A stretch of DNA of 23,498 nucleotides from a virus. Its lineage: Duplodnaviria; Heunggongvirae; Uroviricota; Caudoviricetes. The stretch spans positions 1 to 23,498 of the IMG/VR virus record IMGVR_UViG_2617270976_000016, one strand, 5' to 3'. Positions within the stretch are counted from its first letter, which is position 1, and every line of letters begins with the position of its first letter. Below the pieces are notes generated by a model. That model saw only the letters and a list, made by a program, of their open reading frames with translations. It did no database searches and was not told the DNA's origin. Of this stretch, positions 2,850-22,798 are shown piece by piece. The position numbers were made by a program, and so were the translations under genes.

Positions 2850-2864
2850 AAACCACTTTATTGA

Positions 2865-2912
2865 CTGCACCCCAAAAGTTGGACACCCAACTGAGTTGGG
2901 TGCAGTTTTTTA
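2865..2912. terminator. Bidirectional intrinsic terminator between convergent acyltransferase and tailspike genes
   Basis: Stem CACCCAA/TTGGGTG with loop, flanked by A-run on one side and TTTTTT on the other. Confidence 0.5.
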
Positions 2913-4754
2913 TTATGAAGCCAAAGTTCCGGCAACCTTCCACACTCCACCACCTACATGTATCCATTTATATGGATTTCCTGCAGATGGCGAAGCCAGC
3001 TCCCACCTTGCTCCATTGCCATATTGAGTGACACTCGCATCTGGAGGGTTATCACCATAGACATGAGCAATCCCATTTACTAGATAGCCAGTCGCGGTCC
3101 ATAGCTCAGTTCCCCACACGGAGTATTCTCCACCCTCGCTTACATAATTAAATACAGAAAAACTCCCCCCCCATTTAACTCTTGATGCTGGAGGCATATA
3201 GCATGAAATTAAATTAAGAGTTGTACCACCAACTTGGTAGTATTTACTAGTGTGTGAACCTTCAAATTCAGAAAGTGAAGAATTGTTAAATGATACATTT
3301 GACTGCGTTATTATTATAGCCTCAGCGCCACCATCTTTTACACCAACAGCCCTGAATCCATTAGCTACTATAAAAGATTGATTGACCTCAAATATACTAC
3401 CAGTTACATTCTCTACCGCACACCCATTTAATGTAATCCCAGCACATGACAGGAAAACATATGCAGTTCCATTAACCCTCTCAGGAACGCAGCATGTTAA
3501 TGTGCTATATGTTACGTTATTCATTTTTATGGCGTGGCGAGAGCAGTCTCTAACATAGAGATTATTTATATTAAATGATGTTCCTGCGGTTGCAACAACA
3601 TATCCATCCTGAACATCATGCAACATAAAATTAGATACATTCTGCAACCAACTATCACTGGTATAATACCCTGTCATTCCTCTATAACCATATACATCTT
3701 CAATTCGTGTATTGTAACTAATAGCGCTATATATAATATATTCAGACTTTCCTGTTGCAGTGCATTTTAGACTCAACCCAATTATTCTTGTGCTTCTTGT
3801 TTGTGTTCCGCTTAAATCACCAGCAGTGTCACTATCCATGTCTACCGCAGCGATAAAGTCTTTGGAAAAACTGTGCGCCACACCCTGCCACATGCGATCC
3901 GGAACTGTTTTAATATCGTTACCTGTTTTGATTAATCCACAGGAATCCATACCACAGCCCTCCAGCGTGACACGTGGAGGCACGATAGCGCCATACTTAA
4001 TATCGTAAAATCCATTGAGCCTGAGCGTACCTCCTTCATATAGCAGGCATGCAGTCAGCCGTTCAAAAGCATCACTGTTTTGCTCAGCCGTTCTGGAGGT
4101 CATCATTCCACCGTTCTCTACCGGGATATCAATATGGCTTCCCGTTCGCTTCCAGCGTTTTCCTCCTGCCGTTACAAAGATATTTACTCCATCGTCAGCC
4201 TCTGAACTGGAAAAGGCTATAAACGTTCCTCCACCAAGACCTGGTGTATCAGGGTAATATCCGCGAACTGTTATATTTTGATTTGTGAATGAAGGCTCAA
4301 TAGTTCTTAGTGTCGCAATGTCAGGACAGATACCGATATATTTTTCACCATCTAAGCTGAGTAGATCTCCACGCAATGAAGCATCACCCACGCTAACCCA
4401 CGCACCTAATCCAATCCCACCTGTCGTTTCTGGCGTAGAGCCAGCAGGAACGGTTTTAGGTAATACACCATCCCAACGGTAATACTCGCCAGAGGTTTCG
4501 TCGTGCAATGCCTGATTAGTCAAGGTTATCTCTGCGCCAACCTGAAATGATTTTATTAGTATCCAACCCATTTTTGACAATGATTCTTTGTACTTTGACT
4601 CCATACCATGCCAAGTAAGACGTGGATTACCAAAACGATCAGGCCATAACTCATTGGATTGATCATTAGAAAGATGATCGAAGTTCTGGGCGTTATCGTA
4701 CAAATCTTTTGCAGCAGAAGACCCCAGCGGATTGCCAGTATTATAAGTCGTCAT
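2913..4754 (-). CDS. Tailspike / receptor-binding depolymerase (beta-helix type)
   Basis: 613 aa; Gly/Asn/Thr/Ser-rich repetitive middle typical of right-handed beta-helix tailspikes; last gene of tail module; RBS GAGG upstream of ATG at 4754. Confidence 0.55.
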   Translation of the reverse strand: MTTYNTGNPLGSSAAKDLYDNAQNFDHLSNDQSNELWPDRFGNPRLTWHGMESKYKESLSKMGWILIKSFQVGAEITLTNQALHDETSGEYYRWDGVLPKTVPAGSTPETTGGIGLGAWVSVGDASLRGDLLSLDGEKYIGICPDIATLRTIEPSFTNQNITVRGYYPDTPGLGGGTFIAFSSSEADDGVNIFVTAGGKRWKRTGSHIDIPVENGGMMTSRTAEQNSDAFERLTACLLYEGGTLRLNGFYDIKYGAIVPPRVTLEGCGMDSCGLIKTGNDIKTVPDRMWQGVAHSFSKDFIAAVDMDSDTAGDLSGTQTRSTRIIGLSLKCTATGKSEYIIYSAISYNTRIEDVYGYRGMTGYYTSDSWLQNVSNFMLHDVQDGYVVATAGTSFNINNLYVRDCSRHAIKMNNVTYSTLTCCVPERVNGTAYVFLSCAGITLNGCAVENVTGSIFEVNQSFIVANGFRAVGVKDGGAEAIIITQSNVSFNNSSLSEFEGSHTSKYYQVGGTTLNLISCYMPPASRVKWGGSFSVFNYVSEGGEYSVWGTELWTATGYLVNGIAHVYGDNPPDASVTQYGNGARWELASPSAGNPYKWIHVGGGVWKVAGTLAS

Positions 4755-4806: not shown

Positions 4807-7524
4807 TTAAGCTACATTGCCGGGGTAGGTAGCGTTATCGTACTGATAGAAAGTGTCGCGATACTCTTTTGCCGTTACCTGACATGTTCCATCAGATTGC
4901 GGTGCTATCTCTGAAATTAATGCGCTATATCCAACACGGGATGACTCGCAGAAAATCAGACGAGGCGATTCAATGGATGGGGCGTTTAGCATGATATTGC
5001 TGAATTTTGCTTGTTCTATTACTGATAGAACATATTCATTTACCCTTGTAGCTGCCAGCAAATCCGAAGCAGAACCATCCTGATAGCGTATCAATGCACG
5101 TGGGTTGTTGAATGTCCAGTCAAGTGGTTCTGATACTGTAATAGTCGTTACGCCATCACTTGTACTCATATCCTCAATCAACGTGCTTATTGTTTTGCTA
5201 CCAGGAATATCATCCGTGAATACTACCCTGTCGCCAACGTTATAACAGAGAGCATCCATTTCCGTTGTTGTGGTATGAGTCAAACGTTGCTGAAGGTACT
5301 TCATCAGACGTCGCATACCTATCTGATAAGCACGGTCCTGGTCAAGAACACCATCAAGCGTATAGTCCTCAATCTTTACCGGAGTTGGGTTATCTGATGT
5401 TCTGCACTGCACCGTCTCTTCAGCCCATGTAGTGCCGTTGATATATGTAACATCCACACCATCATAGTCATCTGCTGACGGAGCAACGAAAGCAGTCTGA
5501 AGCGGATCAGTCATCTCCTGTGGGCTGATTATTCCAGTCCACGTTTTCACACCTTCCCTTGCTACAGATGCCAGACCATCGGTAAGAAGGAAGTAACTTT
5601 TTCCTGCATTTGTCACCTTCTGAAGCATCTCCAGCGCAGAAACAGAATCCGTAGTGGCATAGTCAAAGAATTCACTGCCAGGGGTCCAGTAAGTAGTTTC
5701 TAGTGAGTCAATAGCTTCACGGTCCATCGCTAGCCCCAACTCATTACCTATATGATACAGAGCACCAGAAATGCTCCTTGACACACCAGAATCATAAACT
5801 CGCGTGGCTACAACGTTTACGCGGCGATCTGACTGCGCTGCCAGTTTACCGCCAGTTTCCACAGTAACCGCAATTGTGGGGACGCCAGTATACGATGCTG
5901 GCCGTGACAACAAACGTCCTCGCAATGACTGCCAGTACATGTTATCGCGACTGTTATTCTGTCCCTGCTCGTTCGTGCGGCGAGCTCTCACCTCTACTAG
6001 CGCAGGCGTATCCAGCGTGATTCTTTCGGTAAATCCCAGTCCGTTAATGTTCTGGAGGTAGTACGATCCGGTTTTACTTATCCACCCGACGCCTGAACCA
6101 TATGGCCGGTACTGAATCTCCCACTTTACCTCACGGTATTGTTTGTTCCCTTTTTTGTTATACCCACAAATCCCGTTTGGGAAGAAGAAGTTTACTTCGA
6201 ACATATCAACAACTTCATTTTCTGGGCACGCCAGAAAAGGTCCCATCCAACTATCGTTCTCATTTAAACCGTTGGCTTCAAAATCAAGAACTGTGCGCGG
6301 TGAAAATCCAGGCCATGACGGATCAACGCTGCCATCAATAACCCGCTCCAGAGTTACAGAGCTACCATCTATATCAAGAATCTTATATTCGCTTCCGGAA
6401 TGGGAAACAGATAGCCTGACATAACCTTCAGGAATCCCGGTGAACGGAGTTCCAGTGGCGCTATCGTAAGCGAGGGTTATTGATGCGGTAATCACATCTT
6501 CGCCGACTGGCTCAGAGTGAGGTATAAAATCAGCAATGAATAGTTGGTAATCAATGCTGTTGTACCAGAGAGTTACAGGCATCCCAACATAAGGAGCTAT
6601 TTCCTCCAGCGTGTCACTGGTAATTCTGCTGTAAGCACCATCATTAGTTACCACATAGGAATCAGGAACAATTAACTCAACAATTGCACCAACAGTCCAT
6701 GTATCTGGAAGATCATTTGTTGTTTCATCTCCATCATCCGTGCTCAGCCCATTAAATGTTATTGTTGGTCCGGAAACGGTTAGCGAATTAGCAACAACAT
6801 CTTCCGTGTCCGGCGCGGTTTGCGCCATATCAAGACCAGAACCAGATGCGGTTCCCCCAACCTCTGTGGAATTGAACCAGTTTTCTGATCGTTGATCTCC
6901 ACTAACGCTTTGCCCGGGTTGATACACTGTGTAGTTAAACCCATCACCAAGAGAAGCAATTGGAGTTGACCCTACACGAATATCGCCATCCCCAAATGAA
7001 AAACGCCCTCTCCCCATAACAACAAACATTTCAACTGTCATTACCGTTGGATCATCAACTGAGAATCTTGTTACAGGCTGCACTGCATAGTCAGGATAAA
7101 TACGGCTTCGTCCAAATAACTCACGTATCGGGTCGCCCAATTTTGCGTTATTCGCTTTAGCAGGATTTACATCAAGAGGGTTTCCCGTTCCTGATGAATA
7201 ACCGCCAAGGTCACCAACACCAGGAGCAAAGAAAAGAGCATACGCGACTGATGCAACTGATACAGCAACGGCAATCCAGGCAAGAGCTACAGCGCCATAA
7301 GGGACAGGGTAAATTCTGACATCACTGTCTGATTTGATAGCAAATTCAAACCATGCCTGAGGCGGTATGTTCTCTCCATCAACATCAACGGTGATCGGGT
7401 GCTTCATATCAGGCTTATAGCCCTGAACGTTCTTCGCAAGCCACTGATGGATAGTTACTGCGCCATGTTCATGAGTTTCGAGTGGCTCGCCAGGCAGCCG
7501 TGAAGGATAAATTCTGATAGTCAC
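4807..7524 (-). CDS. Large tail-tip / host-specificity protein (J-like central fibre protein)
   Basis: About 900 aa directly downstream of the NlpC/P60 tail gene; start placed at GTG 7524 overlapping upstream stop as GTGA; alternative ATG at 7407; predicted hydrophobic helix near N-terminus. Confidence 0.5.
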   Translation of the reverse strand: MTIRIYPSRLPGEPLETHEHGAVTIHQWLAKNVQGYKPDMKHPITVDVDGENIPPQAWFEFAIKSDSDVRIYPVPYGAVALAWIAVAVSVASVAYALFFAPGVGDLGGYSSGTGNPLDVNPAKANNAKLGDPIRELFGRSRIYPDYAVQPVTRFSVDDPTVMTVEMFVVMGRGRFSFGDGDIRVGSTPIASLGDGFNYTVYQPGQSVSGDQRSENWFNSTEVGGTASGSGLDMAQTAPDTEDVVANSLTVSGPTITFNGLSTDDGDETTNDLPDTWTVGAIVELIVPDSYVVTNDGAYSRITSDTLEEIAPYVGMPVTLWYNSIDYQLFIADFIPHSEPVGEDVITASITLAYDSATGTPFTGIPEGYVRLSVSHSGSEYKILDIDGSSVTLERVIDGSVDPSWPGFSPRTVLDFEANGLNENDSWMGPFLACPENEVVDMFEVNFFFPNGICGYNKKGNKQYREVKWEIQYRPYGSGVGWISKTGSYYLQNINGLGFTERITLDTPALVEVRARRTNEQGQNNSRDNMYWQSLRGRLLSRPASYTGVPTIAVTVETGGKLAAQSDRRVNVVATRVYDSGVSRSISGALYHIGNELGLAMDREAIDSLETTYWTPGSEFFDYATTDSVSALEMLQKVTNAGKSYFLLTDGLASVAREGVKTWTGIISPQEMTDPLQTAFVAPSADDYDGVDVTYINGTTWAEETVQCRTSDNPTPVKIEDYTLDGVLDQDRAYQIGMRRLMKYLQQRLTHTTTTEMDALCYNVGDRVVFTDDIPGSKTISTLIEDMSTSDGVTTITVSEPLDWTFNNPRALIRYQDGSASDLLAATRVNEYVLSVIEQAKFSNIMLNAPSIESPRLIFCESSRVGYSALISEIAPQSDGTCQVTAKEYRDTFYQYDNATYPGNVA

Positions 7525-7901
7525 TTCCAGAACTCCACTTTGACAAAACGACGTTTGAAACGCGAGACAGGAAGGAAGGTAACGTTCACTCCTGGGTTGC
7601 ACTCTGCGACATGCAATTGGCCGTTAATTTCAACGACTACACCAACATGAGTAACGGTTGACCCGGAATAACAGGCGGCACCGGCACCTATACACGGCGC
7701 GCATTTTTCCAGAGAAAGCATGAGCTTTCTGGCCTCTCGGTTTAAACCTCCGCCGTCTTTTGTTATACCTGAAAAATCTGGCCACAGTGGTAGCCCCAGG
7801 TCTTTTCGTACCTCGTTCACTATGCCGAAGCAGTCAAGTTCAGGATAAGTGCGACCGCCCTTCTGCCATATGACAGAAAGGTATTTATCAGGATTGAACA
7901 T
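7521..7901 (-). CDS. NlpC/P60 (C40) peptidase-domain tail protein
   Basis: 126 aa; Cys motif (ELDCFG) and downstream His (THVGVVV) typical of NlpC/P60 catalytic residues; position in tail-tip module. Confidence 0.5.
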   Translation of the reverse strand: MFNPDKYLSVIWQKGGRTYPELDCFGIVNEVRKDLGLPLWPDFSGITKDGGGLNREARKLMLSLEKCAPCIGAGAACYSGSTVTHVGVVVEINGQLHVAECNPGVNVTFLPVSRFKRRFVKVEFWK

Positions 7902-7910
7902 TGTTGCTCC

Positions 7911-8393
7911 TTAACTCATGTAACGAAGGCCGGGGTAATACGGGAGGGTGTATCGGTGGCGCGGCCATGCGGTATCAAGAACGTTCATATATCCGGCAGT
8001 AATCTGCGCCTGCATGGATGTCCATGACCCGCTTTTAATCGCCAGCGTGTACGGTACAGATGCCGGAGCACTGAGGTCCGTGGAGACATAGTTACGATAT
8101 GTCAGCGATGCCTCTGAAAGGTTATCCAGAGCATTCCGTATGGCGGTGGAAGTAATCCCGTCTATGTTATCAATGGCAAACTGCAAATCTTGTGTACCAT
8201 CGCTGTTTCTTGCTGGAAGGGCAATATCAATAGCCGCAGCCTGAAAGGTTACCACCACGCCACTTTCGGTTGTTGCGGTGATGTCATCGAAGCCTTTACA
8301 AAGATAATAAACACCAGTACCGATGTTTATTTGCAGGGTTTCGATGATCACCTCTTCCCCGGATGAGGCATACAGCCTATTTAGAATCGTCAT
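7911..8393 (-). CDS. Phage minor tail protein
   Basis: 160 aa; sits between distal tail gene and NlpC/P60 gene; ATGA stop-start overlap with the upstream gene at 8390-8393. Confidence 0.4.
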   Translation of the reverse strand: MTILNRLYASSGEEVIIETLQINIGTGVYYLCKGFDDITATTESGVVVTFQAAAIDIALPARNSDGTQDLQFAIDNIDGITSTAIRNALDNLSEASLTYRNYVSTDLSAPASVPYTLAIKSGSWTSMQAQITAGYMNVLDTAWPRHRYTLPYYPGLRYMS

Positions 8394-8863
8394 GGCTCAG
8401 GCCACTCCCTGTTAAGCGCAATATCAATGATGCTGCTGTTGATAATGTAATCAGGAAAATCAGCCCAGCCAGGAGCCAGAACAGGCCTTTCCCACAATTC
8501 CAACGTGGCCGTGTAGCGCCAGTAGTTTCCGCCTTCAATTGTCGGCCCCTCATAGATATCCACGAAACGACAGACATAAACATCAACAACGCCTAACGGA
8601 GATCGAAGAGGCATGTTAAACCAGTCAGCGCCATCCTTAATGGTGTCCCTGAACCATACCTCAAATAGTTGAGCTTCCGGATCCGTAAGCAGCCATGCAA
8701 CCGAGGCCTGAGTTGGCGTTGAAGTATATAATCTCCTCTGCCTCGCCCTGCCGGATGTGAGTTCGGTTCTCAGTAATGGGCTAACTGGCTTTAACCCGAA
8801 CCCTTCCTGCAATGGAACAGGAAGGTAATCATTCGGATAGTTAATGCTGGTCGTTTTAGCCAT
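8390..8863 (-). CDS. Phage tail protein (distal tail protein-like, immediately after tape measure)
   Basis: 157 aa; start overlaps tape-measure stop as TAATG at 8861-8865. Confidence 0.4.
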   Translation of the reverse strand: MAKTTSINYPNDYLPVPLQEGFGLKPVSPLLRTELTSGRARQRRLYTSTPTQASVAWLLTDPEAQLFEVWFRDTIKDGADWFNMPLRSPLGVVDVYVCRFVDIYEGPTIEGGNYWRYTATLELWERPVLAPGWADFPDYIINSSIIDIALNREWPEP

Positions 8864-10189
8864 TAACCAGTTCTCCTGTTAGTGTTCCAGCGCATCATTG
8901 CTTTCGAAATGTCACCTTTCCCACTGGCAAGGTCGCTGGCTGCCTGTTGATATCCAAGTTTTGCCCCCTCTGCCATGGCTTGCTTCATCATGGAGATCTG
9001 AGTATCAGACGGATCACCGTTAACATTCATGTTAATAACGGGAGAGAAGCTTGCTCCGCTGGTTGATTGTTGATTTACTCTGTCCAGTGTTTCATCAAGC
9101 TTTGCTGACGTCTGAGAGGTCACAACTCGCTCACCTTTCTGGAGCAACCATGTTCCTGTTTCCGGGACGCTATCAATACCATCGTGCGCCATACCTGCCA
9201 GGGCAGAAGTACCAACTGCTGCAACAAGTGGTGCAGTTACTGCCGCAGCTGTTGCCATCGCTGCAGGTGCAAGCGCGGGACCAACGATAGGAATTGCCGC
9301 TGTCGATGCGTATGCTGCGATTTGAGCCTGCAAAGATGATGCCTGTGCGTTTGCCAGCATTGATGCCGCTGCGCTTGCCTGAGTGGATTTACCTACCAGC
9401 AATTGCACTGCCTGATATACCAGCCATTGCGCCGCCATATCAGAAAGGGTTTTAATGATTGTTTCACCAAGACCAGAGAAAATATTACTGAAGAAATCAC
9501 CTAAATCTTCTGCACCGTGCACAAGGTCATTAAGGTTGTCAGAAATAACCGAGGTTGCTCCACCAAGAATAGAAGTCATCGCATCTGCAGCAGTCTGGTA
9601 ATAATCAGCTGATTTATCAGCATAATCATTCAACGAGTCCATTATCCCGCTTTGCCAGTCGCCCATCTGAGCATCAGACTTTTTGTAGTAGTCCTCCTGA
9701 ATATCAAGACGGTCATCAAGCGCCTGCTGTAACGCTGCCGTTTCCTGGTCATAAAGCGATTTGCTTATATCACCACTTTGGTACTGTTTCTGTAGATCTT
9801 GCTGCCTGTCGAGAAAACTACGATGGATATCCAGCAATTCCTTCATGCGCTGGCGAGTCTTGTCTCCCATACCTGCGCCGATAAAATCAGAATCATTAGC
9901 TGCCTGGTCATTCTGATTTTGCTTACGTAAATTAGCGGTAAATTCGACAAGTTTCAGATTTTCTTCGTTGGCTTTTTTAAGTGAGTTGAGGCGATCTATC
10001 TCAGTAGCAAGTTGCTCAAGTCGCTCTTTCTGAGCTGCATTAATTCCTGTTAATTTCCCAGATGTAAAATCAAAACGCAGCTTCTCAAGCTCGGTTAGAG
10101 GCCAAACAGATATCGGAATGGAACGCTGGCATAAACCAGCACAACGAAGTACGCCAGCAATGATATAGCGGGGCGATGTCTTGCCCCTT
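8863..10189 (-). pseudogene. Tail tape-measure protein, 3' remnant (N-terminal part deleted)
   Basis: Ala/Gly-rich hydrophobic C-terminal region typical of tape-measure proteins; frame is open with no start codon from 9870 up to a stop near 10190; first ATG only at 9870; no upstream head or tail-tube genes. Confidence 0.5.
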
Positions 10190-10271
10190 CACGCTGGTAG
10201 AACATCAGGACAAGGACAATGACTGCACAAATACCTGCATTCACCATCGCTGACGGATCACTTGTTACCAT
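10095..10271 (-). CDS. Small two-helix membrane protein (possible holin/antiholin-like)
   Basis: About 58 aa from ATG 10271; two hydrophobic segments; start overlaps the end of the upstream holin-like gene. Confidence 0.3.
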   Translation of the reverse strand: MVTSDPSAMVNAGICAVIVLVLMFYQREGARHRPAISLLAYFVVLVYASVPFRYLFGL

Positions 10272-10653
10272 TGCTGGCCCCTCCTCCACGGAATCGCGAA
10301 AGAATACTGAACAGGCTTCCCAAATCCTGACTGTTGAAAAATGTGAGCACTTTGATTGTCATCGCCGCCACTACAACAGCACCAAGTGCGTCTAATGGTC
10401 TGTCACTATACCCGGTAGCCTGTGACAACTTTGAACCAACCAGGCCAGCAGCAAGAACGCCAACAATGAATGACGTCATGAAGTAAGCAATCAATCGTAC
10501 TCGTGTGATATTTGCCGCTGTCGCTACATAAAATACTGCACCAGCGAATGCGCCAAATACCACGCCATAATCAATACCGGTTGCAAGACCAAATACGCTG
10601 GCTCCCATCAGGCCACCAGCCGCAACCGTAGTGCCAGAAACAGGATCGGACAT
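10258..10653 (-). CDS. Holin-like membrane protein
   Basis: 131 aa from ATG 10653 with strong RBS GAGGGGG; Gly/Ala-rich transmembrane segments; first gene after the Q-proximal cassette. Confidence 0.45.
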   Translation of the reverse strand: MSDPVSGTTVAAGGLMGASVFGLATGIDYGVVFGAFAGAVFYVATAANITRVRLIAYFMTSFIVGVLAAGLVGSKLSQATGYSDRPLDALGAVVVAAMTIKVLTFFNSQDLGSLFSILSRFRGGGASNGNK

Positions 10654-10695
10654 TAAGCCCCCTCTTATTGCTGTGAGTCCTCTCAAAACGAGGGG

Positions 10696-10730
10696 ATAAA
10701 AAAAGCCACTTTAATGTGGCTTATGTTTTT
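10696..10730. terminator. Intrinsic terminator downstream of the orphan membrane-protein gene
   Basis: Hairpin AAGCCAC-TTTAAT-GTGGCTT with A-run before and T-run after, so it can act on either strand. Confidence 0.45.
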
Positions 10731-10746
10731 GAATAAATTTTGAAAA

Positions 10747-11352
10747 TTAGTCATTAAGATATTTATTAGCGTCTGATATAAAACCAGAATATCTTCCTGT
10801 CCAGCCCATAGAATTCTCCATAGTGGATATATGTTTCTTTATTATTGTGGAAAGATAAGTGTGAATATCATTTATTGATTTCTTAAAGGCACACCCTTTT
10901 TCGTCTTCAAGTATTGATATCAGCAAACTTACTTTATATTTTTCTAGTTCAAGTAATGCATCCGACATTTTCTTTTCAATATCAGGACGTGTAAAGCTGT
11001 AACCAATGCGGCCTTCTCTAAGCCATTCGGTATGCAACTCATGAACTTTTGTGAGCTGGTAAGCATATTCACTGACATTAATTCTTACATGGGCAGCATA
11101 GTTTCTCTTGTCTTCCCTGCTTTGCTGATATCTAACCGATTCGTTATTTTGGCGTATAACATATAAAGAGATGAGAGCAGGAACCAAACCGCTTATAAAA
11201 GCAGCTATAATAGTTTCCCATGAAAATGAGGAGTCTACTGAAACTGTCGCAATTTTATCAATACTTATCGTGTCTGCTACACGTTCTTTCACATAAAGAA
11301 ATGGTATGCCTAACCACATATTGAGACCTTTATTATTTAAAAAGGCCATCAT
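10747..11352 (-). CDS. Hypothetical membrane-anchored protein (moron; no family recognised)
   Basis: 201 aa from tandem ATG ATG at 11352-11347; one predicted TM helix (WETIIAAFISGLVPALISLYVI) then helical soluble domain; markedly AT-rich; bracketed by terminators. Confidence 0.5.
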   Translation of the reverse strand: MMAFLNNKGLNMWLGIPFLYVKERVADTISIDKIATVSVDSSFSWETIIAAFISGLVPALISLYVIRQNNESVRYQQSREDKRNYAAHVRINVSEYAYQLTKVHELHTEWLREGRIGYSFTRPDIEKKMSDALLELEKYKVSLLISILEDEKGCAFKKSINDIHTYLSTIIKKHISTMENSMGWTGRYSGFISDANKYLND

Positions 11353-11386
11353 AACAAAAACCCGCACAATGGCGGGTTTCTTTTTT
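11353..11386. terminator. tR-prime-like intrinsic terminator immediately downstream of the Q gene
   Basis: Hairpin CCCGC-loop-GCGGG flanked by T-runs on both strands; the minus-strand T-run ends at the ATG of the next gene. Confidence 0.5.
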
Positions 11387-11428
11387 GTTCTGTTGCTCAG
11401 TTCGCTTTAACGTCCCGAGCCTACCACA

Positions 11429-15417: not shown

Positions 15418-16077
15418 ATGAAAACAGAGATGAAAGACCGAATAAGATCCCGGCGAGTCCAGCTCGATATAACTCAGCAGACCCTGGCTAAACGCCTTGG
15501 GGTGAGTAGAGTGTCCGTTACCAAATGGGAGAACGGTACAACTAAGCCTGACGGAGAAAACCTTCACCAACTAGCGATGGCTTTACAGACCACTCCTGAA
15601 TGGATTCTTTACGGCAAGGGTGATGAGACTCAAGATGACACCAAAGTTATCCCATACCTGAAGCCACCTACCGCCGTTCCTATTATCTCTGCTGTTCAGG
15701 CCGGGGTATGGACTGATACCTATGCATGCTCAAGGCTTACTGATGTGATTTCATGGACTCAAACCACAGCAAACGTTTCTGATGAAGTTTTCGGATTGGT
15801 GGTTCGTGGTGAGTCAATGACTAACCCACATGGACTTCCATCAATTCCGGAGGGCTCAATCGTTATTGTTGAGCCACATTACGGACAACTTGATGACCTG
15901 TATGGGAAAATTGTCGTAGCAATACTTGATGGTTCAGCAGAAGCGACTGTGAAGAAACTTGTTTGGGATAGCCCTTACTCATATCTCATGCCGCTTAATC
16001 CCGCCTTTAAGCCGATCCCCATTGATGGCAATTGCCGCATTGTAGGAAAAGTTGTTCAGATAACGCAGAACATCTAA
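15418..16077 (+). CDS. CI-type prophage repressor (N-terminal HTH, C-terminal LexA-like S24 peptidase domain)
   Basis: 219 aa; HTH (QQTLAKRLGVSRVSVTKWENG) and S24-like C-terminus (GESM…, VVKK…) read from translation. Confidence 0.85.
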   Translation: MKTEMKDRIRSRRVQLDITQQTLAKRLGVSRVSVTKWENGTTKPDGENLHQLAMALQTTPEWILYGKGDETQDDTKVIPYLKPPTAVPIISAVQAGVWTDTYACSRLTDVISWTQTTANVSDEVFGLVVRGESMTNPHGLPSIPEGSIVIVEPHYGQLDDLYGKIVVAILDGSAEATVKKLVWDSPYSYLMPLNPAFKPIPIDGNCRIVGKVVQITQNI

Positions 16078-16709: not shown

Positions 16710-16786
16710 GTGGCATTAGCTCAGTTGGATAGAGCAACGGCCTTCTAAGCCGTGGGGCGCAGGTTCGAATCCTGCATGCTGCACCA
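16710..16786 (+). tRNA. Phage-borne tRNA-Arg, anticodon UCU
   Basis: Cloverleaf traced by hand: D-stem GCTC/GAGC, anticodon stem ACGGC/GCCGT with loop CTTCTAA, T-stem GCAGG/CCTGC with TTCGAAT loop, 3' ACCA; acceptor stem has two G-U pairs. Confidence 0.8.
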
Positions 16787-17429: not shown

Positions 17430-17912
17430 ATGACGACCACACAGAATGTCACTGAGTTACAACCACGTATGACCAGAGAGCAACTGATCGATGCAGCGCG
17501 TAAAGCCGCCCCTCTCCTTCCGGTTGCTTACCGCGGGATCATGACCGAACTGGCTAACCGTCTTGATATCGTCAGCGTGGCGCTTTGCGAGTCAATGGAA
17601 CAGCGTAAAGCACTGGCCATCGAGAACACCGTTTTACGAGACGATGTTAATTGTTGGGCCAAAGAGTGCGACCGCATCGTTGAACGTCATACCAAATCGC
17701 CGACCAATATGCACATGCTGGAGGCGCAGAGAGAATTACGCGAGCTAACTCCAGTAACCGATCAGGTTATTCGCGATATCCAGGCCACTGGCGTGGAAAA
17801 GTACGCAAACGTCACTATTGCCATAGGGAAAGAAGAGCAAGAAGAAAGCATTGTTTACGCTGGTAATCAGGCTCTGTTATTCGCTAACCAACTTCGTGAA
17901 GGTACTGCGTAA
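17430..17912 (+). CDS. Hypothetical early protein (first gene of early operon)
   Basis: 160 aa; RBS GGAGA; stop overlaps next start as TAATG. Confidence 0.4.
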   Translation: MTTTQNVTELQPRMTREQLIDAARKAAPLLPVAYRGIMTELANRLDIVSVALCESMEQRKALAIENTVLRDDVNCWAKECDRIVERHTKSPTNMHMLEAQRELRELTPVTDQVIRDIQATGVEKYANVTIAIGKEEQEESIVYAGNQALLFANQLREGTA

Positions 17913-18952
17913 TGGCCGCCAACTCATTCAAACAGATGTCCCGTGACGGGACCATCAAGCGCACCGATACCGGGATGTTTATTAGCCTTGAACATATCCA
18001 CGTGCGTGAAGGTTTCAACAAGCGTGAAGACGACGAACGCACACGCCAGGCAGATGACGAACTGTTTAACTATCTGATGAACGGCGGTACCGTTCCTCCA
18101 CTGGAGGTTATCGCACGCGATGAAGGCGGTGTGTGGGTTGTTGAGGGTCACCGCCGTCGCCGTTGCTATGCGCGTTGTGCTGAAGCAGGTAAGCCAGTAG
18201 ACCGCATTCATATCATGCCTTTCAACGGTAACGATGTGCAGCGTCTGGCTCGCATCATGACCAGTAATAACCAACTCCCCCTTTCCGATATTGAACAGGC
18301 TGCTGTTATTCAGGAGCTTCATAATGCTTTCAACCAGACCACCAGCGAGATTGCAAAGCTGGTCAATAAGTCTGTAGCGACCGTTGAGAAGTTGCTCACT
18401 CTGAGCACCGCTAATTATGACGTTCAGCAGGAAGTTAAATCTGGTGCCGTATCTGTTGATGTTGCTGTTGACCGCGTTCGCGAGTTTGGCGAACAAGCTG
18501 GTGAGGTTCTCCAGCACGATAAAGCCGTAGCCGCCGCCCAGGGAAAAACAAAGGTTACGCGCAGTTCTATCGCGCCTGAACTCAACATTAAAAGTGCTCG
18601 CCGTTTTGTGGAGTTAATGGCCATGGCGACGATTAGCGATGAAGGCGTGTTCACTTTGCAAGGCACGGCACTGGCTGAAGCTCTGGCGATCATCGACGAA
18701 CATAAAACCATTGCTGAAGCTCGCGAAACCTATCGCCTTTCACAGCCAATCCCTACTACAGAAATTATCGGGAAGGTGCTGTATGTGAAGCTGGACGGTA
18801 AGGAAATCGGCTCGGCAATAATTTATCGCGGTAAGAACGTCACGCTCGACCTAGGTGATAGAAAAATAATCGCCAGCCAGTCAAAAGCAGTGGCCCACTT
18901 CGTTAAACAACACAAACTTCAGCAGGTACATACCAATGCAAACGATCAATAA
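17912..18952 (+). CDS. ParB/Srx-like nuclease-domain protein
   Basis: 346 aa; N-terminal ParB-like motif region (VVEGHRRRRCYA); translationally coupled to neighbours. Confidence 0.5.
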   Translation: MAANSFKQMSRDGTIKRTDTGMFISLEHIHVREGFNKREDDERTRQADDELFNYLMNGGTVPPLEVIARDEGGVWVVEGHRRRRCYARCAEAGKPVDRIHIMPFNGNDVQRLARIMTSNNQLPLSDIEQAAVIQELHNAFNQTTSEIAKLVNKSVATVEKLLTLSTANYDVQQEVKSGAVSVDVAVDRVREFGEQAGEVLQHDKAVAAAQGKTKVTRSSIAPELNIKSARRFVELMAMATISDEGVFTLQGTALAEALAIIDEHKTIAEARETYRLSQPIPTTEIIGKVLYVKLDGKEIGSAIIYRGKNVTLDLGDRKIIASQSKAVAHFVKQHKLQQVHTNANDQ

Positions 18953-19508
18953 CCGTATGACAGAAACTCAAATTGCTGATCTCTTCAGCCTGGCGGTTCA
19001 GTTGCAGGTTAAAGCTGAAGAATCAGATGATCGTGATACTGCAATTTTGGCCTACTCAATTCAAAACGCCTGCTCAAATTTAACGGAATCCCAGCGCGAG
19101 TTCCGTGCAGCAGACGCGACTATTCACAATCTGGAACTGAAAATCACAGAGATGGCAGTACAGCTAGCTAACGCCGATAGCAAGTGCAGGGAGCTGGCGG
19201 GGGTAGTTGCTGAGAACGCTGATTTAAAATCTCTGATTGAACAACATGCAGCCTCTATCGCTGTATGTCCTAACTGCTCACACGAAGAGCCAAGCGAAAC
19301 TGACGACATCGTTGCGCTTTATCGCTCAATGGAAACCCCAGCCACCGACGCTTTCCTGGCTGAAGTGCGGACGCAGGGTGTGGAAGGATTCTTGAAGTTT
19401 TGCGGTGAGGAAAATTCCGTATTTGTCGAGGCTAAAGCTTACTACCGGTCGCTATCGGATGCGGTTGATGAGTTCGCCGCCCGACTTCGCAAAGGAGCCG
19501 CTCTATGA
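18936..19508 (+). CDS. Hypothetical coiled-coil protein (Ea22-like by context)
   Basis: 190 aa, or slightly shorter from ATG 18957; central heptad-like helical region; CPNC motif. Confidence 0.35.
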   Translation: MQTINNRMTETQIADLFSLAVQLQVKAEESDDRDTAILAYSIQNACSNLTESQREFRAADATIHNLELKITEMAVQLANADSKCRELAGVVAENADLKSLIEQHAASIAVCPNCSHEEPSETDDIVALYRSMETPATDAFLAEVRTQGVEGFLKFCGEENSVFVEAKAYYRSLSDAVDEFAARLRKGAAL

Positions 19509-20158
19509 GCAACCGATTCTACATGCTGTGTACACGAGAAACTGTCGGGAACAACGCGTCATTCCACTGCCACAACGGAAACGGGTATAGCTCAAACATC
19601 GACCGCGCTCACGTGTATACCCGCGAAGAGGCACAACACAGCTGGGATTTAGGCAGAGAGATTGATCAGCCAGTTTGCGCAGCCAGCGTTGATTCCTTGG
19701 CTACCTGGCATGTCGACTGCCAGTACATTCCTGCTGAAAGTGTTATTGAGCCCGGATGCGAGGCCTACGTGGCCTACAAAAAAGGAAGCTGGAACGGCAA
19801 CGATGTGTACTGGCTGCAACATGGCGGACTTCCAACAGATGACTTCAGTAAGGCATTCATTTTTGTTTCCGCTAACACAGCGGAGCCTGGAATTGTCTGG
19901 ATTCCTTTTTCCTTGGCTGACAAGGCTAAGCGCCGCACATTCAGCATCAATGAATTTAATCGCCGCACCATGGTACAGGCGGCAGGGCTGGTTATGCCTG
20001 AATGGTTGAAAAAACAAAACCGCAGGAAAAAGGCACGAAGTGGCAAGGTCCGCTGGAATTGTCCGCACTGCGGAAAAATCAGTTGGCAGTACAACCCATA
20101 TGATTTTGATGGTTGCCGCGACTACTCATGCGAAGGATGGAGGCCAAATGACAACTAA
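19505..20158 (+). CDS. Hypothetical protein with C-terminal Zn-ribbon-like Cys cluster
   Basis: 217 aa; C-terminal CPHCG…C…C; ATGA overlap with upstream gene. Confidence 0.4.
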   Translation: MSNRFYMLCTRETVGNNASFHCHNGNGYSSNIDRAHVYTREEAQHSWDLGREIDQPVCAASVDSLATWHVDCQYIPAESVIEPGCEAYVAYKKGSWNGNDVYWLQHGGLPTDDFSKAFIFVSANTAEPGIVWIPFSLADKAKRRTFSINEFNRRTMVQAAGLVMPEWLKKQNRRKKARSGKVRWNCPHCGKISWQYNPYDFDGCRDYSCEGWRPNDN

Positions 20159-20741
20159 CAACCACCCGGCGAACGGTCCTGTATCACTCGATCGCCTGCA
20201 CCAGATACGCGAAATACTCAGCAAAGCAGCAGCACAAAGCGATGGCGGTAATCTCGGCTACGCAATGGCTGATGCTGTGAAGGTGATTGATGGGATGATT
20301 TCTCGCGAACTGGTACGCCGTGAACATGCAGCATGGTCACTGGCTACTTTCGGCGATGTCGGTCCAGTTGGTCCGCTAAAGCACCTTTCCAAAGAAGCGC
20401 TCGAGGCTGCTGCTGAACCCGGCGACCTTAGCGAATGGGCTGACATGCAATTCCTGTTATGGGATGCGCAACGTCGTGCCGGTATCAGTGACGAGCAGCT
20501 TACCCAGGCGATGGTGGAAAAGTTGGCGGTTAACAAACAGCGCGAATGGCCTGAGCCGAAAGACGGTGAGCCAAGGCTACATATCAAGGAATCCGACAAC
20601 TCGTTTGTGGCTCCGGAGGGGACGGCCTGCAAATACTGCGGCGGTACAGGTTATTTCCGTTGGAAAAAATCCGCAAATACCTTCCCGTGTCCATGTATGG
20701 GATGCGATTTGCCAGCAGCACCTCTGCAGGAGGTGAAGTGA
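20148..20741 (+). CDS. DUF550-type (MazG-like dATP/dGTP pyrophosphohydrolase-domain) protein with C-terminal Zn-ribbon
   Basis: 197 aa from ATG 20148 (RBS GGAGG); N-terminus MTTNNHPANGPVSLDRLHQIRE matches my recollection of DUF550 prophage proteins; C-terminal CKYCGG…CPC. Confidence 0.5.
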   Translation: MTTNNHPANGPVSLDRLHQIREILSKAAAQSDGGNLGYAMADAVKVIDGMISRELVRREHAAWSLATFGDVGPVGPLKHLSKEALEAAAEPGDLSEWADMQFLLWDAQRRAGISDEQLTQAMVEKLAVNKQREWPEPKDGEPRLHIKESDNSFVAPEGTACKYCGGTGYFRWKKSANTFPCPCMGCDLPAAPLQEVK

Positions 20742-20827
20742 TGCCGCCAGTTAAAGTGGTTGTTATTACCGTGGTGATGCTAGCGATCTGCCAGTTAGTT
20801 TCTATGACGGGATATGGCATATGGTGA
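20741..20827 (+). CDS. Possible 28-aa hydrophobic peptide (MPPVKVVVITVVMLAICQLVSMTGYGIW)
   Basis: ATG overlaps upstream stop (TGATG) and its own stop overlaps the next ATG; single TM-like segment; not in the ORF track because it is too short. Confidence 0.25.
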   Translation: MPPVKVVVITVVMLAICQLVSMTGYGIW

Positions 20828-21099
20828 GCAAGCTAAAACAGCGTCGCATACGCCGACTGAAAGCCGATGTAGCATGGTGGAAATCTGAAGCTGAGTACTG
20901 TAAGGCGCGAGTGTTCGAACAGGCAAACGAAATTGCTGAACTAAGAAGCATGGTGATTCGTGTACCAATGCCGGTAATGGTGCCAGTAGAGATACTTCAT
21001 CAGCTAAATGGGAAGGGATCGAAAGAATATCCATTATGTCGCAATTGCAACGATGGAACCCGTCACGGGTGTTCATCGTGTGCTTACAGAATGAAGTAA
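20821..21099 (+). CDS. Hypothetical small protein with coiled-coil N-terminus and C-terminal 4-Cys cluster
   Basis: 92 aa; CRNC…GCSSC pattern. Confidence 0.4.
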   Translation: MVSKLKQRRIRRLKADVAWWKSEAEYCKARVFEQANEIAELRSMVIRVPMPVMVPVEILHQLNGKGSKEYPLCRNCNDGTRHGCSSCAYRMK

Positions 21100-21132
21100 C
21101 CGGGTGCAGCCGGTTTAAGTGGAGAACTAACT

Positions 21133-21360
21133 ATGAGCGGACAAATCCAACGTTTTCTTACTCCAGATGACCTCTATCAATTAACTGGTTATCGTCGCCC
21201 TTCCCTACAGTGTAAAGCTCTGAGGGATAGTGGGGTATTTTTTATCCCACGCAAGGACGGAAGGCCAGGAACAACATGGGATCATGTATCAAACCCTGTT
21301 GGACTTAAGTTAATAGTGAGCAATCCAGAGGAAGAAGAACCAAACTTTAAGGATATGTAA
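21133..21360 (+). CDS. DUF4224-like protein, putative excisionase / recombination directionality factor
   Basis: 75 aa; motif LTPDDLYQLTGY; stop overlaps integrase start as TAATG. Confidence 0.5.
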   Translation: MSGQIQRFLTPDDLYQLTGYRRPSLQCKALRDSGVFFIPRKDGRPGTTWDHVSNPVGLKLIVSNPEEEEPNFKDM

Positions 21361-22370
21361 TGTCTAGAGCTCGCAAAAACCCTGAGGATAACTGGATGCC
21401 TCCTCGCGTTCGACGGGGAAAATCTGCTTATGAGTTTCGTACAACAGATGGTCGTACCGTCAGGTTGTGCAATCCTGATCTAACAAAATCGCAGGTATGG
21501 GCAGCTTACGAAAACTTCATAAACGATTTAAAGGTTGGTACGAACTTCAACGCACTTTGTGAAGAATTCTTTAATTCCGGTGATTTCCACGAGTTAGCAA
21601 CTGAAACACGTAAAGACTACAGAAAATACGGTTCAAAGGTAAATGTTGTCTTCGGGAAAATGAAGCCGGATAACATCAAGCCAGAGCACATCAGAAAATA
21701 TATGGATAAACGAGGTGTTAAGAGCAGGGTTCAGGCAAACCGCGAGAAAGCATTTATGTCCAGGGTGTTTCGGTGGGCATACGAACGAGGAAAGGTGAAG
21801 ATGAATCCTTGCCAGGGCGTAAAGCAATTTAAAGAGCAGGCTCGGACCCGTTATATTAGCGATAGGGAATATGATGCACTTTATAGCGTTGCTTCTATTC
21901 CCGTAAAAGTTGCAATGGAGTTGGCATATCTATGTTGCGCCCGCCAGGGAGACATTCTTGACCTCAAAAAGAGTCAATTATTGAGCGAAGGAATTTTAAT
22001 TCAGCAGAGTAAAACCGCAGTTAGCCAGATCAAGGCCTGGACAAAACGTCTGGAGGATGCCGTTAATCTTGCTGACAGCATTCCTCTTAACAGCGGGATG
22101 GTAAGTATTTTTGTCATCCACCAGCCATCAGGTCTGCGATACACACGCGATGCTTTTAATGCGCAATGGATGAAGACTAAAAAACTTGCTGCTGAAAAAT
22201 ATCCAGACCTTGATTTCCAGTTCACTTTTCATGATCTAAAAGCCAAAGGAATTTCTGATCTTGAAGGTACGTTAAGTGAGAAGCAGGAAATTTCAGGTCA
22301 TAAAAACGCCTCGCAAACAGCGAGATATAATCGAAGAATTTCAGTTGTTCCGGTCGTCGGGGGGCAGTAA
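21360..22370 (+). CDS. int: Tyrosine-type phage integrase
   Basis: 336 aa; C-terminal catalytic region with HDLK and H…ARY motifs; adjacent to a tRNA gene. Confidence 0.9.
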   Translation: MSRARKNPEDNWMPPRVRRGKSAYEFRTTDGRTVRLCNPDLTKSQVWAAYENFINDLKVGTNFNALCEEFFNSGDFHELATETRKDYRKYGSKVNVVFGKMKPDNIKPEHIRKYMDKRGVKSRVQANREKAFMSRVFRWAYERGKVKMNPCQGVKQFKEQARTRYISDREYDALYSVASIPVKVAMELAYLCCARQGDILDLKKSQLLSEGILIQQSKTAVSQIKAWTKRLEDAVNLADSIPLNSGMVSIFVIHQPSGLRYTRDAFNAQWMKTKKLAAEKYPDLDFQFTFHDLKAKGISDLEGTLSEKQEISGHKNASQTARYNRRISVVPVVGGQ

Positions 22371-22419
22371 TGCCCTCTTTTTATGGCGAAGCTGAATGGC
22401 GAAACAATGGTGAACATGG

Positions 22420-22455
22420 AGTACAAAAACAAAAAAACCACCCGTAGGTGGTTTC
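22420..22455 (-). terminator. Intrinsic terminator downstream of leuZ (end of the tRNA operon)
   Basis: Minus strand: hairpin AACCACC-TACG-GGTGGTT followed by TTTTTTTGTTTTTG. Confidence 0.55.
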
Positions 22456-22495
22456 ACGACACTGCTTATTGCTTTGATTATTCTGTTCTTTCCCA

Positions 22496-22582
22496 TGGTA
22501 CCCGGAGTGGGACTTGAACCCACACAGCGCGAACGCCGAGGGATTTTAAATCCCTTGTGTCTACCGATTCCACCATCCGGGC
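22496..22582 (-). tRNA. leuZ: tRNA-Leu, anticodon UAA
   Basis: 87-nt minus-strand sequence matches my recollection of E. coli leuZ, long variable arm, 3' CCA encoded. Confidence 0.95.
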
Positions 22583-22594
22583 TCGGGAAGAAAG

Positions 22595-22668
22595 TGGAGG
22601 CGCGTTCCGGAGTCGAACCGGACTAGACGGATTTGCAATCCGCTACATAACCGCTTTGTTAACGCGCC
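22595..22668 (-). tRNA. cysT: tRNA-Cys, anticodon GCA
   Basis: 74-nt minus-strand sequence matching E. coli cysT as recalled. Confidence 0.95.
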
Positions 22669-22722
22669 AAATTCTTCAGGCCTTTCAGCCAGACATCCGC
22701 TTGAGGCCGATGTCTTTTAAAC

Positions 22723-22798
<76 letters not shown>

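Follow-up and report, generated by a model that had tools for sequence, protein, structure and literature searches.

Genes and features of the early-left block

The window analyzed here is a stretch of 23,498 nucleotides of phage DNA, whose large open reading frames (ORFs) include those for an acyltransferase, a tail spike, a tail tip, a tape-measure fragment, an HNH protein, an integrase and similar products. Positions 17430–22370 form a tightly packed gene block with overlapping start and stop codons, which spans from the repressor region to xis-int and has a terminator 3' of int. We focused on two adjacent plus-strand genes of this block, gene 1 (19505–20158) and gene 2 (20148–20741), both of which are present as ORFs. 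Within the block, the only promoter-like site was a weak 9-of-12 match at 18739 and the only plus-strand terminator a weak match of three GC pairs at 20743; an Rfam scan returned tRNAs only. The two genes would thus be co-transcribed with the neighbouring genes, and their description as early genes in an earlier note on this DNA was reasonable, given a packed block that runs from the repressor region to xis-int. In our reading, gene 1 and gene 2 are accessory genes of a lambda/P22-type prophage that belong to its early-left ("ea") region and lie just upstream of xis-int. Two reverse-strand ORFs at 19649–20068 and 20258–20632 were regarded as spurious, and conservation of the plus strand is strong.

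The start of gene 2 required correction. The mechanically assigned start, a GTG at 20040, lies inside gene 1 and was rejected, whereas the homologues all start with MTTNN at the equivalent of the ATG at 20148, which has a GGAGG some 7 nt before it. Gene 2 therefore spans 20148–20741 and encodes a three-module, EaA-like protein of 197 aa. It shares 11 nt with the end of gene 1, and its nearest named relative is a "DUF550 domain-containing protein [Citrobacter freundii]" of 197 aa with 90% identity. A 126-aa "HNH endonuclease" that represents the 90% cluster of gene 2 has no sequence resemblance to it and was dismissed as a clustering artefact.

Directly downstream, a hydrophobic ORF of 28 codons (MPPVKVVVITVVMLAICQLVSMTGYGIW; 20741–20827, plus strand) was read directly from the sequence; its start overlaps the stop of gene 2, its stop overlaps the next start, and it is a candidate small membrane peptide. 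The next gene (20821–21099, plus strand) encodes a 92-aa protein that matches phrog_14816 (E 9.7e-36) and no Pfam or NCBIfam family, and an identical copy was found on 110 contigs, mostly of Salmonella. This protein carries a C-terminal Cys cluster, CRNC...CSSC (C73, C76, C84, C87), so that three consecutive products of the same operon, those of gene 1, gene 2 and the 92-aa gene, have a Cys-cluster C-terminus. The Cys-rich tails that had been pointed out in two adjacent genes are therefore real, but they are not confined to that pair.

Gene 1 and its relationship to gene 2

Gene 1 encodes a protein of 217 aa that matches the profile of phrog_2457 over its full length (E 1.6e-108; residues 1–214 on profile positions 1–220 of 222). 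This family, which has no annotation, is widespread in phages and comprises 853 representative clusters; a Pfam profile scan assigned gene 1 to no family, and a literature search on phrog_2457 returned nothing informative. The N-terminal alpha/beta domain of the protein spans approximately 160 residues and is followed by a basic helix and, at the C-terminus, a predicted zinc ribbon. Its structure was predicted with confidence (pLDDT 92.8), and a fold search with the model recovered no neighbour among solved structures; judging from this model, the family may have a fold not seen among them. A weak hint of an internal duplication in the domain was obtained with hhalign (E 0.001, probability 21%).

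The zinc ribbon occupies residues 186–209 (20060–20131, plus strand) and reads N-C-P-x-C-G-K-I-x-W-Q ... G-C-x4-C. Across 42 relatives, down to 46% identity, Cys186, Cys189 and Cys204 never vary and Cys209 shows at least 90% conservation, and more distant relatives keep the CxxC...CxxC pattern. Because of this conservation, we consider the C4 tail to be a probable zinc ribbon, presumably zinc-binding, and not a chance cluster; short strands were predicted at 182–185 and 192–195 with pLDDT of about 85–89. The claim that both proteins end in Cys clusters was thus borne out, by this conserved C4 in gene 1 and by a five-Cys tail in gene 2. The YnfU zinc-binding family (NF038384) was tried for the tail of gene 1 and rejected, since it scored 14.1 bits (E 0.026) against a cut-off of 36 and its match was confined to 22 residues at the first CxxC. 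No Pfam domain was found fused in the longer relatives of gene 1, and one homologue stands alone in the virulent phage Av-05. If anything, we would guess that the gene 1 product is not an enzyme but a small protein that binds nucleic acid or a protein of the host.

A functional link between the two genes is conceivable, in which gene 1 would supply a zinc-ribbon sensor or adaptor and gene 2 a nucleotide hydrolase effector of a two-component system. The genes are adjacent, their 11-nt overlap suggests translational coupling, both proteins bear Cys-rich tails, and at least one IMG/VR locus (L017) has the same pair. However, a DUF550 core lies within 3 kb of gene 1 in only five of 80 IMG/VR phage loci, and a DUF550-bearing ORF begins at the end of gene 1 in only two of these (L017 and L027). 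In the nin region of E. coli PCP06021, the gene 1 homologue is followed by a DUF551 protein that takes the place of gene 2, and the neighbours of distant gene 1 relatives are unrelated small prophage ORFs. Moreover, stop and start codons overlap as a rule throughout the operon at 17430–22370. We therefore consider a two-component system very improbable; the rarity of a nearby DUF550 core in gene 1 loci indicates that gene 1 and gene 2 are independent and do not constitute a system.

The DUF550 core of gene 2

MazG-type enzymes cleave the alpha-beta phosphoanhydride of nucleoside triphosphates, and the central part of gene 2 belongs to this group. An HMM search, which the earlier note had proposed as a check, detected PF04447 with E 1.5e-41 (141 bits against a cut-off of 23), residues 57–151 (20316–20600, plus strand) covering profile positions 2–96 of 97. 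This MazG/MazZ-type all-alpha NTP pyrophosphohydrolase family, formerly DUF550, is now named dATP/dGTP pyrophosphohydrolase. The domain named in the note was thus correctly recognized, but it is central rather than N-terminal, being preceded by a module of approximately 50 residues.

With phmmer, the same residues matched the MazZ protein of cyanophage S-2L (7ODY; E 0.002), a (d)GTP-specific MazG-like diphosphohydrolase that is alignable with gene 2 over the whole domain. Residues E83, E86, E96, D99, R132 and D106 of gene 2 align with E35, E38, E50, residue 53, R83 and D60 of MazZ, for which the metal ligands, R83 and the guanine-contacting D60 have been named (PMC8342488). Gene 2 thus contains the signature of the all-alpha NTP pyrophosphohydrolases, E83-x2-E86 ... 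E96-x2-D99 plus R132, and shares with MazZ the four acidic metal ligands, the catalytic arginine and the guanine-contacting aspartate; the two proteins probably have the same chemistry. Two other positions differ: I56 of MazZ corresponds to F102 and E34 to K82 in gene 2, the latter position not being strictly conserved in MazZ either. Because the four acidic ligands and the catalytic arginine are kept in the alignment with MazZ, gene 2 very probably encodes an active MazG-type (d)NTP pyrophosphohydrolase. Pyrophosphohydrolase activity has been measured for family relatives with dGTP and dATP (PMC12884076) or with (d)GTP (PMC8342488), these being distant relatives in Z-genome phages; for lambdoid or P22 EaA-type proteins, the literature searched contained no measured activity. 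The AF2 model of gene 2 was poor (overall pLDDT 53.8) and usable for secondary structure only; it shows helices only in the core (H35-68, 82-88, 95-110 and 115-131).

The affinity to MazZ raises the question of whether gene 2 could serve a Z-genome, supplying dGMP to the PurZ pathway and removing dATP, as MazZ and DUF550 enzymes do in phages with 2-aminoadenine DNA. The Pfam family is the same, and the catalytic and guanine-contacting residues are kept. MazZ, however, is a bare chain of 111 residues encoded in a datZ-mazZ-purZ cluster for the synthesis of 2-aminoadenine DNA, and this cluster is absent from the window, in whose larger ORFs Pfam and PHROG scans detected no PurZ or DatZ candidate (adenylosuccinate-synthetase-like or HD-type dATPase). 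The DNA of P22 and lambdoid phages is ordinary, A-containing DNA. The DUF550 proteins of Z-phages, moreover, form a monophyletic group of their own (PMC12884076). We thus regard a Z-genome role as virtually excluded. The Pfam name of the family derives from an enzyme of Acinetobacter phage SH-Ab 15497, which we compared with gene 2 by family (PF04447) only. That enzyme acts in a Z-genome pathway and is a DUF5664-DUF550 fusion, and as the DUF5664 part is a dNTP pyrophosphohydrolase in its own right (PMC12884076), the activity cannot be cleanly ascribed to DUF550.

Could the core instead be catalytically idle, a dimerisation scaffold presenting variable N- and C-terminal modules? Very variable tails occur on the same core, MazG-type domains are obligate oligomers, with MazZ a tetramer (PMC8342488), and E86 is replaced by Q in one close homologue. 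On the other hand, 119 of the 120 nearest homologues have all four acidic ligands, and about half of the 120 have no tail to present. An idle scaffold is consequently improbable in our judgment, and an active pyrophosphohydrolase remains the preferred reading of the core.

Module shuffling, kinship with EaA and possible roles

The modules that flank the core have histories of their own. The N-terminal module (residues 1–50; 20148–20297, plus strand) is predicted to be helical, and the poor gene 2 model is at its best in the helices at 14–30 and from 35 (block means 77–88). The module is common to proteins with other domains, also heading the DUF551 protein of E. coli PCP06021, and in P22-type EaA an unrelated N-terminus of 80 residues stands in its place. 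At the other end, a Cys5 tail, a putative zinc knuckle (residues 161–186; 20628–20705, plus strand; CKYCGGTGY...CPCMGC), lies between the linker NSFVAPEG and the sequence AAPLQEVK, with all five cysteines (161, 164, 181, 183 and 186) within the last 37 residues. The tail has low model confidence and belongs to no Pfam family, DUF5351 matching at E 0.1 only, and a tblastn search with the tail alone found no match in 50,697 phage records. Weak profile matches to DUF7836 (E 0.28), DUF5351 (E 0.1) and DruE (E 0.007, 12 bits) were all below the cut-off and were discarded.

The idea that the Cys tail is intrinsic to the enzyme finds no support in the homologues. About half of the 120 nearest are tail-less, and the rest carry a dozen different tails, in which DUF551, Lar or another Cys module replaces the zinc knuckle; the Cys5 tail of gene 2 itself was found in 13 of the 109 homologues with a delimitable tail. 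The joins recur at linkers of the "AGNSPVTPDG" type, the proteins end in "AAPQQEVK", and interchangeable C-terminal modules occur on the same core in Citrobacter, Salmonella and E. coli prophages. From these comparisons, the N-terminal 50 residues and the Cys5 tail are separate modules and not parts of the enzyme, and they would have been attached to the core at the recurring linkers through the mosaic recombination that characterises this region. Because about half of the homologues are tail-less, the DUF550 core must itself be under selection.

Among named systems, gene 2 is closest to EaA of P22-type phages, with 76% identity over 108 residues of the DUF550 core. P22 eaA occupies the same position, in the early-left operon between the erf/abc recombination genes and xis-int, and the order of eaA and xis-int in UAB_Phi20/P22 is that of gene 2 and xis-int in the window. 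P22-type EaA differs in its length of 317 aa, its N-terminus and its C-terminal DUF551, where gene 2 has another N-module and the five-Cys zinc knuckle. Judged by position and sequence, gene 2 is a homologue of P22 eaA. P22 EaA and the "EaA protein" of Klebsiella T1-like phages are, like gene 2, without assigned function, and our search of the literature on MazG-like proteins in lambdoid prophages and on the function of P22 EaA returned nothing informative.

The enzyme would most likely bind a divalent metal through E83, E86, E96 and D99 and, early in lytic growth, would convert a purine (d)NTP to the (d)NMP and pyrophosphate, an activity through which the nucleotide pool may be trimmed or cleaned; the reshaping of nucleotide pools that the earlier note raised is plausible. 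Against such a role, dGTP or dATP hydrolysis has no obvious purpose in a phage whose DNA is ordinary.

A counter-defence role would offer a different target: the core would remove a triphosphate-bearing stress or immune nucleotide instead of bulk dNTPs and thereby blunt abortive infection. (p)ppGpp and a triphosphate messenger such as the dITP of the Kongming system are low-probability candidates. The precedent, and the only MazG-like anti-defence enzyme of a phage on record, is Atd1 of Pectobacterium phage PcCB7V, an accessory-gene product with a small MazG-type catalytic domain, which we liken to gene 2 by description and not by sequence; it hydrolyses ppGpp, confers protection from TIR-STING and retron-TIR, and has no effect on cyclic di-GMP or rNTPs (10.1101/2022.06.09.495361). 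dITP is a genuine messenger of immunity, and the Kongming study (10.1101/2024.12.20.629578) reported no phage enzyme that destroys it. Furthermore, Lar restriction-alleviation domains are fused to some DUF550 homologues, and anti-RecBCD genes lie nearby in the P22-type ea region. Against this, we obtained no PADLOC or anti-defence profile match, and the fusions resemble generic mosaic joins and not functional pairings. The degradation of cyclic oligonucleotide signals, which the earlier note had raised, is unsupported: MazG-type enzymes cut triphosphates, cyclic oligonucleotides are not expected substrates, and Atd1 leaves cyclic di-GMP uncleaved (10.1101/2022.06.09.495361). A counter-defence function of gene 2 is therefore unlikely, although it is the least unlikely of the alternatives weighed here. 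Its extension to the EaA-like DUF550 enzymes of temperate enterobacterial phages in general, with the zinc knuckles, DUF551 and Lar as co-delivered anti-defence or targeting modules, is slightly more doubtful still.

Taken together, the results probably describe two independent accessory genes of the ea region, gene 2 encoding an EaA-like pyrophosphohydrolase of the MazG/MazZ type with shuffled modules and gene 1 a protein of an uncharacterised family that may have a binding role. Gene 2 itself is ordinary, a routine relative of P22 EaA with a domain already in Pfam under its present name and with near-identical proteins known from annotation in prophages of Citrobacter, Salmonella and E. coli. 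As gene 2 is also the counterpart of P22 eaA, a long-ignored "ea" gene, the finding matters little as it stands. At least 483 sequenced phages carry the DUF550 domain, yet in the literature searched no EaA-type member from a phage with ordinary DNA had a demonstrated substrate or phenotype. The gene 1 family, with its very confident model and no recognisable fold relative among solved structures, is a reasonable target for structural genomics.

Domain identity and relatives of gene 2

The earlier note had described two adjacent early genes, and this tandem was confirmed with corrected coordinates: gene 1 occupies 19505-20158 (+; 217 aa) and is followed by gene 2. A mechanical ORF list opened gene 2 at the GTG at 20040 (20040-20741). 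We rejected this start because it falls inside gene 1, all homologues start with MTTNN, and a GGAGG lies ~7 nt upstream of the ATG at 20148; thus, gene 2 spans 20148-20741 (+; 197 aa). In the Pfam search, it matched PF04447, which now bears the name dATP/dGTP pyrophosphohydrolase and of which DUF550 is the older name (residues 57-151; E 1.5e-41; 141 bits, gathering score 23), and so the DUF550/MazG family proposed in the earlier note stood, although its domain sits in the middle of the protein and not at the N-terminus. The 126-aa "HNH endonuclease" that represents the 90%-identity cluster of gene 2 (20148-20738) was dismissed as unrelated, a clustering artefact, although its label could mislead automated annotation.

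Among solved structures, phmmer matched MazZ of cyanophage S-2L (7ODY) across these 95 residues (E 0.002). In MazZ, the catalytic metals are held by E35, E38, E50, and position 53, R83 is the transition-state arginine, and I56 and D60 contact guanine (PMC8342488). Using the printed alignment and the six-residue offset of the deposited chain, which was verified by I16, N20, I56, and D60 landing on the correct letters, these positions corresponded in that order to E83, E86, E96, D99, R132, F102, and D106 of gene 2. MazZ E34, which is not strictly conserved (PMC8342488), is replaced by K82. All four acidic residues were kept in 119 of the 120 nearest database homologues, which, because these are close relatives, indicates no more than an absence of decay at the site. 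The AF2 model was poor (pLDDT 53.8), with helices through the core, and was not counted as confirmation of the fold. From its sequence, gene 2 probably encodes a metal-dependent (d)NTP pyrophosphohydrolase.

The activities of the DUF550 family have been measured only in phages in which 2-aminoadenine replaces adenine: a DUF5664-DUF550 fusion in Acinetobacter phage SH-Ab 15497 produces the monophosphates from dGTP and dATP, and S-2L MazZ turns (d)GTP into (d)GMP, which feeds PurZ (PMC12884076, PMC8342488). No PurZ or DatZ candidate was found in the window, and a role of gene 2 in this pathway was thus excluded within it; the other large ORFs encode an AT3-SGNH acyltransferase, a tail spike, a tail-tip protein, a tape-measure fragment, an HNH protein, Ant, RusA, Q, a holin, and an integrase. 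By tblastn, the DUF550 core was detected in 483 phage records, among them those of P22 and related phages (as the core of eaA) and of many Klebsiella T1-like phages (annotated as "EaA protein"). The eaA gene of the P22-like phage UAB_Phi20 maps between erf/abc and xis-int and so corresponds in relative position to gene 2, and the two cores share 76% identity over 108 residues; P22-type EaA differs from gene 2, however, at its N-terminus and in ending with DUF551. The literature searched yielded no paper that assigns EaA a function. Gene 2 is an ordinary representative of a prophage gene family that is already known and abundant.

Exchangeable modules around the core

The 120 nearest homologues diverged past a conserved "...GEPRLHIK", and about half of them ended at most 8-11 residues beyond it. 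Automatic delimitation of the tail succeeded in 109 of the 120, and the tail of gene 2 itself, CKYCGGTGYFRW...CPCMGC, recurred in 13 of these. Other tails comprised DUF551, a Lar restriction-alleviation domain, a "FINCPECFGDDDCETCDGSGRIEI" finger, "ECDICGH...HYCC", and Cys-free segments, and some homologues carried two tail modules in series. A dozen different tails were joined to the core at recurrent "AGNSPVTPDG" or "QPAPVVP" linkers, and "AAPQQEVK" was a common C-terminal ending; these short linker peptides and the shared ending have the look of junctions at which modules are exchanged by recombination. The N-terminal 50 residues of gene 2 are shared with a DUF551 protein of E. coli PCP06021 and are replaced in P22 EaA. 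Mosaic module exchange is familiar from the lambdoid ea and nin regions, and the pattern observed here is read as being of this type, an interpretation based on the general mosaicism of lambdoid phages. Since the tail is swappable, it does not define the enzyme. This tail contains all five cysteines of gene 2, its CxxCxGxG appears similar to DnaJ-type zinc motifs, and zinc binding by it is likely.

Gene 1 and the early-left operon

The Cys-cluster tails that the earlier note had seen on both products were borne out. In the alignment of its relatives, gene 1 ends in a nearly invariant NCPxCGK-x3-WQ...GC-x4-C preceded by a basic stretch, and CxxC...CxxC is retained in distant relatives. It matched phrog_2457 end to end (E 1.6e-108), with nothing above threshold in Pfam, NCBIfam, or PADLOC. 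A profile search recovered 853 representative clusters (E<=1e-3), nearly all stand-alone at ~210 aa, and the few longer relatives had no known added domain. Homologues occurred in Enterobacterales, Yersinia, Acinetobacter, and Methyloprofundus, those named being all "hypothetical". The AF2 model was confident (pLDDT 92.8), combining beta-hairpins and short helices with one long basic helix (166-178). It had no fold relative in the libraries searched, retrieving nothing below E 0.9 from the PDB with Foldseek, and only family fragments and uncharacterised proteins from a viral structure library. There was a weak sign of internal duplication (hhalign E 0.001, probability 21%). From its basic helix and putative zinc ribbon, the product may be a binding protein; gene 1 is a common but uncharacterised phage gene. 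A homologue with 77% nucleotide identity lies at 5965-6621 of the virulent Vequintavirinae phage Av-05 (L083; 121 kb), and the family is therefore not confined to temperate phages.

No link between the two genes was supported, and they are not a pair. Among 80 IMG/VR gene 1 loci, a DUF550 core lay within 3 kb in five, and a DUF550-bearing ORF started at the gene 1 end only in two (L017 and L027); an ead/Ea22-like neighbour was present in 44. Gene 1 follows ren in the nin region of E. coli PCP06021 and precedes a DUF551 protein there, stands among unrelated small genes in Av-05, and has unrelated neighbours in distant relatives (Acinetobacter, Methyloprofundus, and a metagenomic genome).

Here, the + strand block comprises genes for a 160-aa protein (17430-17912), a ParB-like protein (17912-18952; phrog_1033, ParB HTH domain) upstream of the ead/Ea22-like gene (18936-19508), gene 1, gene 2 (11-nt overlap), a 28-codon ORF (20741-20827), a 92-aa protein (20821-21099), an excisionase (21133-21360), and an integrase (21360-22370). 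Few-base overlaps run throughout, excepting the 33-nt gap before the excisionase. Scans of 17430-22370 gave no convincing internal promoter (best, a weak 9-of-12 promoter-like match at 18739) or + strand terminator (only a weak stem at 20743), and a terminator-like hairpin lies immediately 3' of int. Together with the LexA-type repressor gene (15418-16077) and the divergent Cro-like and CII-like genes on the opposite strand, these features identify the block as the early-left operon of a lambda/P22-type prophage.

The 28-codon ORF (+), MPPVKVVVITVVMLAICQLVSMTGYGIW, shares bases with the gene 2 stop and the start of the 92-aa gene; it is strongly hydrophobic and may encode a small membrane peptide. 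The 92-aa protein (phrog_14816), which has no family annotation, is the third product in a row with a terminal Cys cluster (CRNC...CSSC), and its identical sequence occurred on 110 contigs, Salmonella predominating.

In the stretch 22359-22798, the int hairpin is followed by tRNA-Leu(taa), tRNA-Cys, and tRNA-Gly, all on the minus strand, and then by pgsA; the prophage is integrated beside this tRNA Gly-Cys-Leu cluster and pgsA, probably with its attachment site in or adjoining tRNA-Leu. The prophage also contains a tRNA-Arg gene (anticodon tct; 16710-16786, +) in the interval from the repressor gene to the early-left operon, an unusual position for a phage tRNA. The prophage looks defective (7500-11400, -). 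The holin gene (10258-10686) is followed by a ~390-bp gap, a 335-aa protein whose sole Pfam match is to a lambda-type tape-measure C-terminal domain, and tail-tip genes; the stretch from the holin to the tail-tip genes lacks genes for an endolysin, terminase, portal, head, or tail tube, nor were O/P-type replication genes detected from cII to rusA. At the prophage end (888-4754), an OafA-like AT3-SGNH acyltransferase gene, likely an O-antigen-modifying conversion gene, adjoins the tail-spike gene.

Host messengers as possible substrates

The earlier note had also raised degradation of immune second messengers. MazG-type enzymes attack a nucleotide triphosphate, and cyclic oligonucleotides carry none. 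The sole phage MazG-like anti-defence enzyme found in the literature searched, Atd1, hydrolysed ppGpp, left rNTPs and cyclic di-GMP unaffected, and protected against TIR-STING and retron-TIR toxicity (10.1101/2022.06.09.495361); degradation of cyclic messengers was thus not supported. The Kongming messenger is dITP, and the known phage countermeasure removes its dAMP precursor rather than degrading dITP (10.1101/2024.12.20.629578). By analogy, a purine-dNTP pyrophosphohydrolase might conceivably act on molecules of the ppGpp or dITP type, the most novel of the readings considered but an unlikely one. The finding is that of a member of a known, abundant prophage family beside a common, uncharacterised phage gene.
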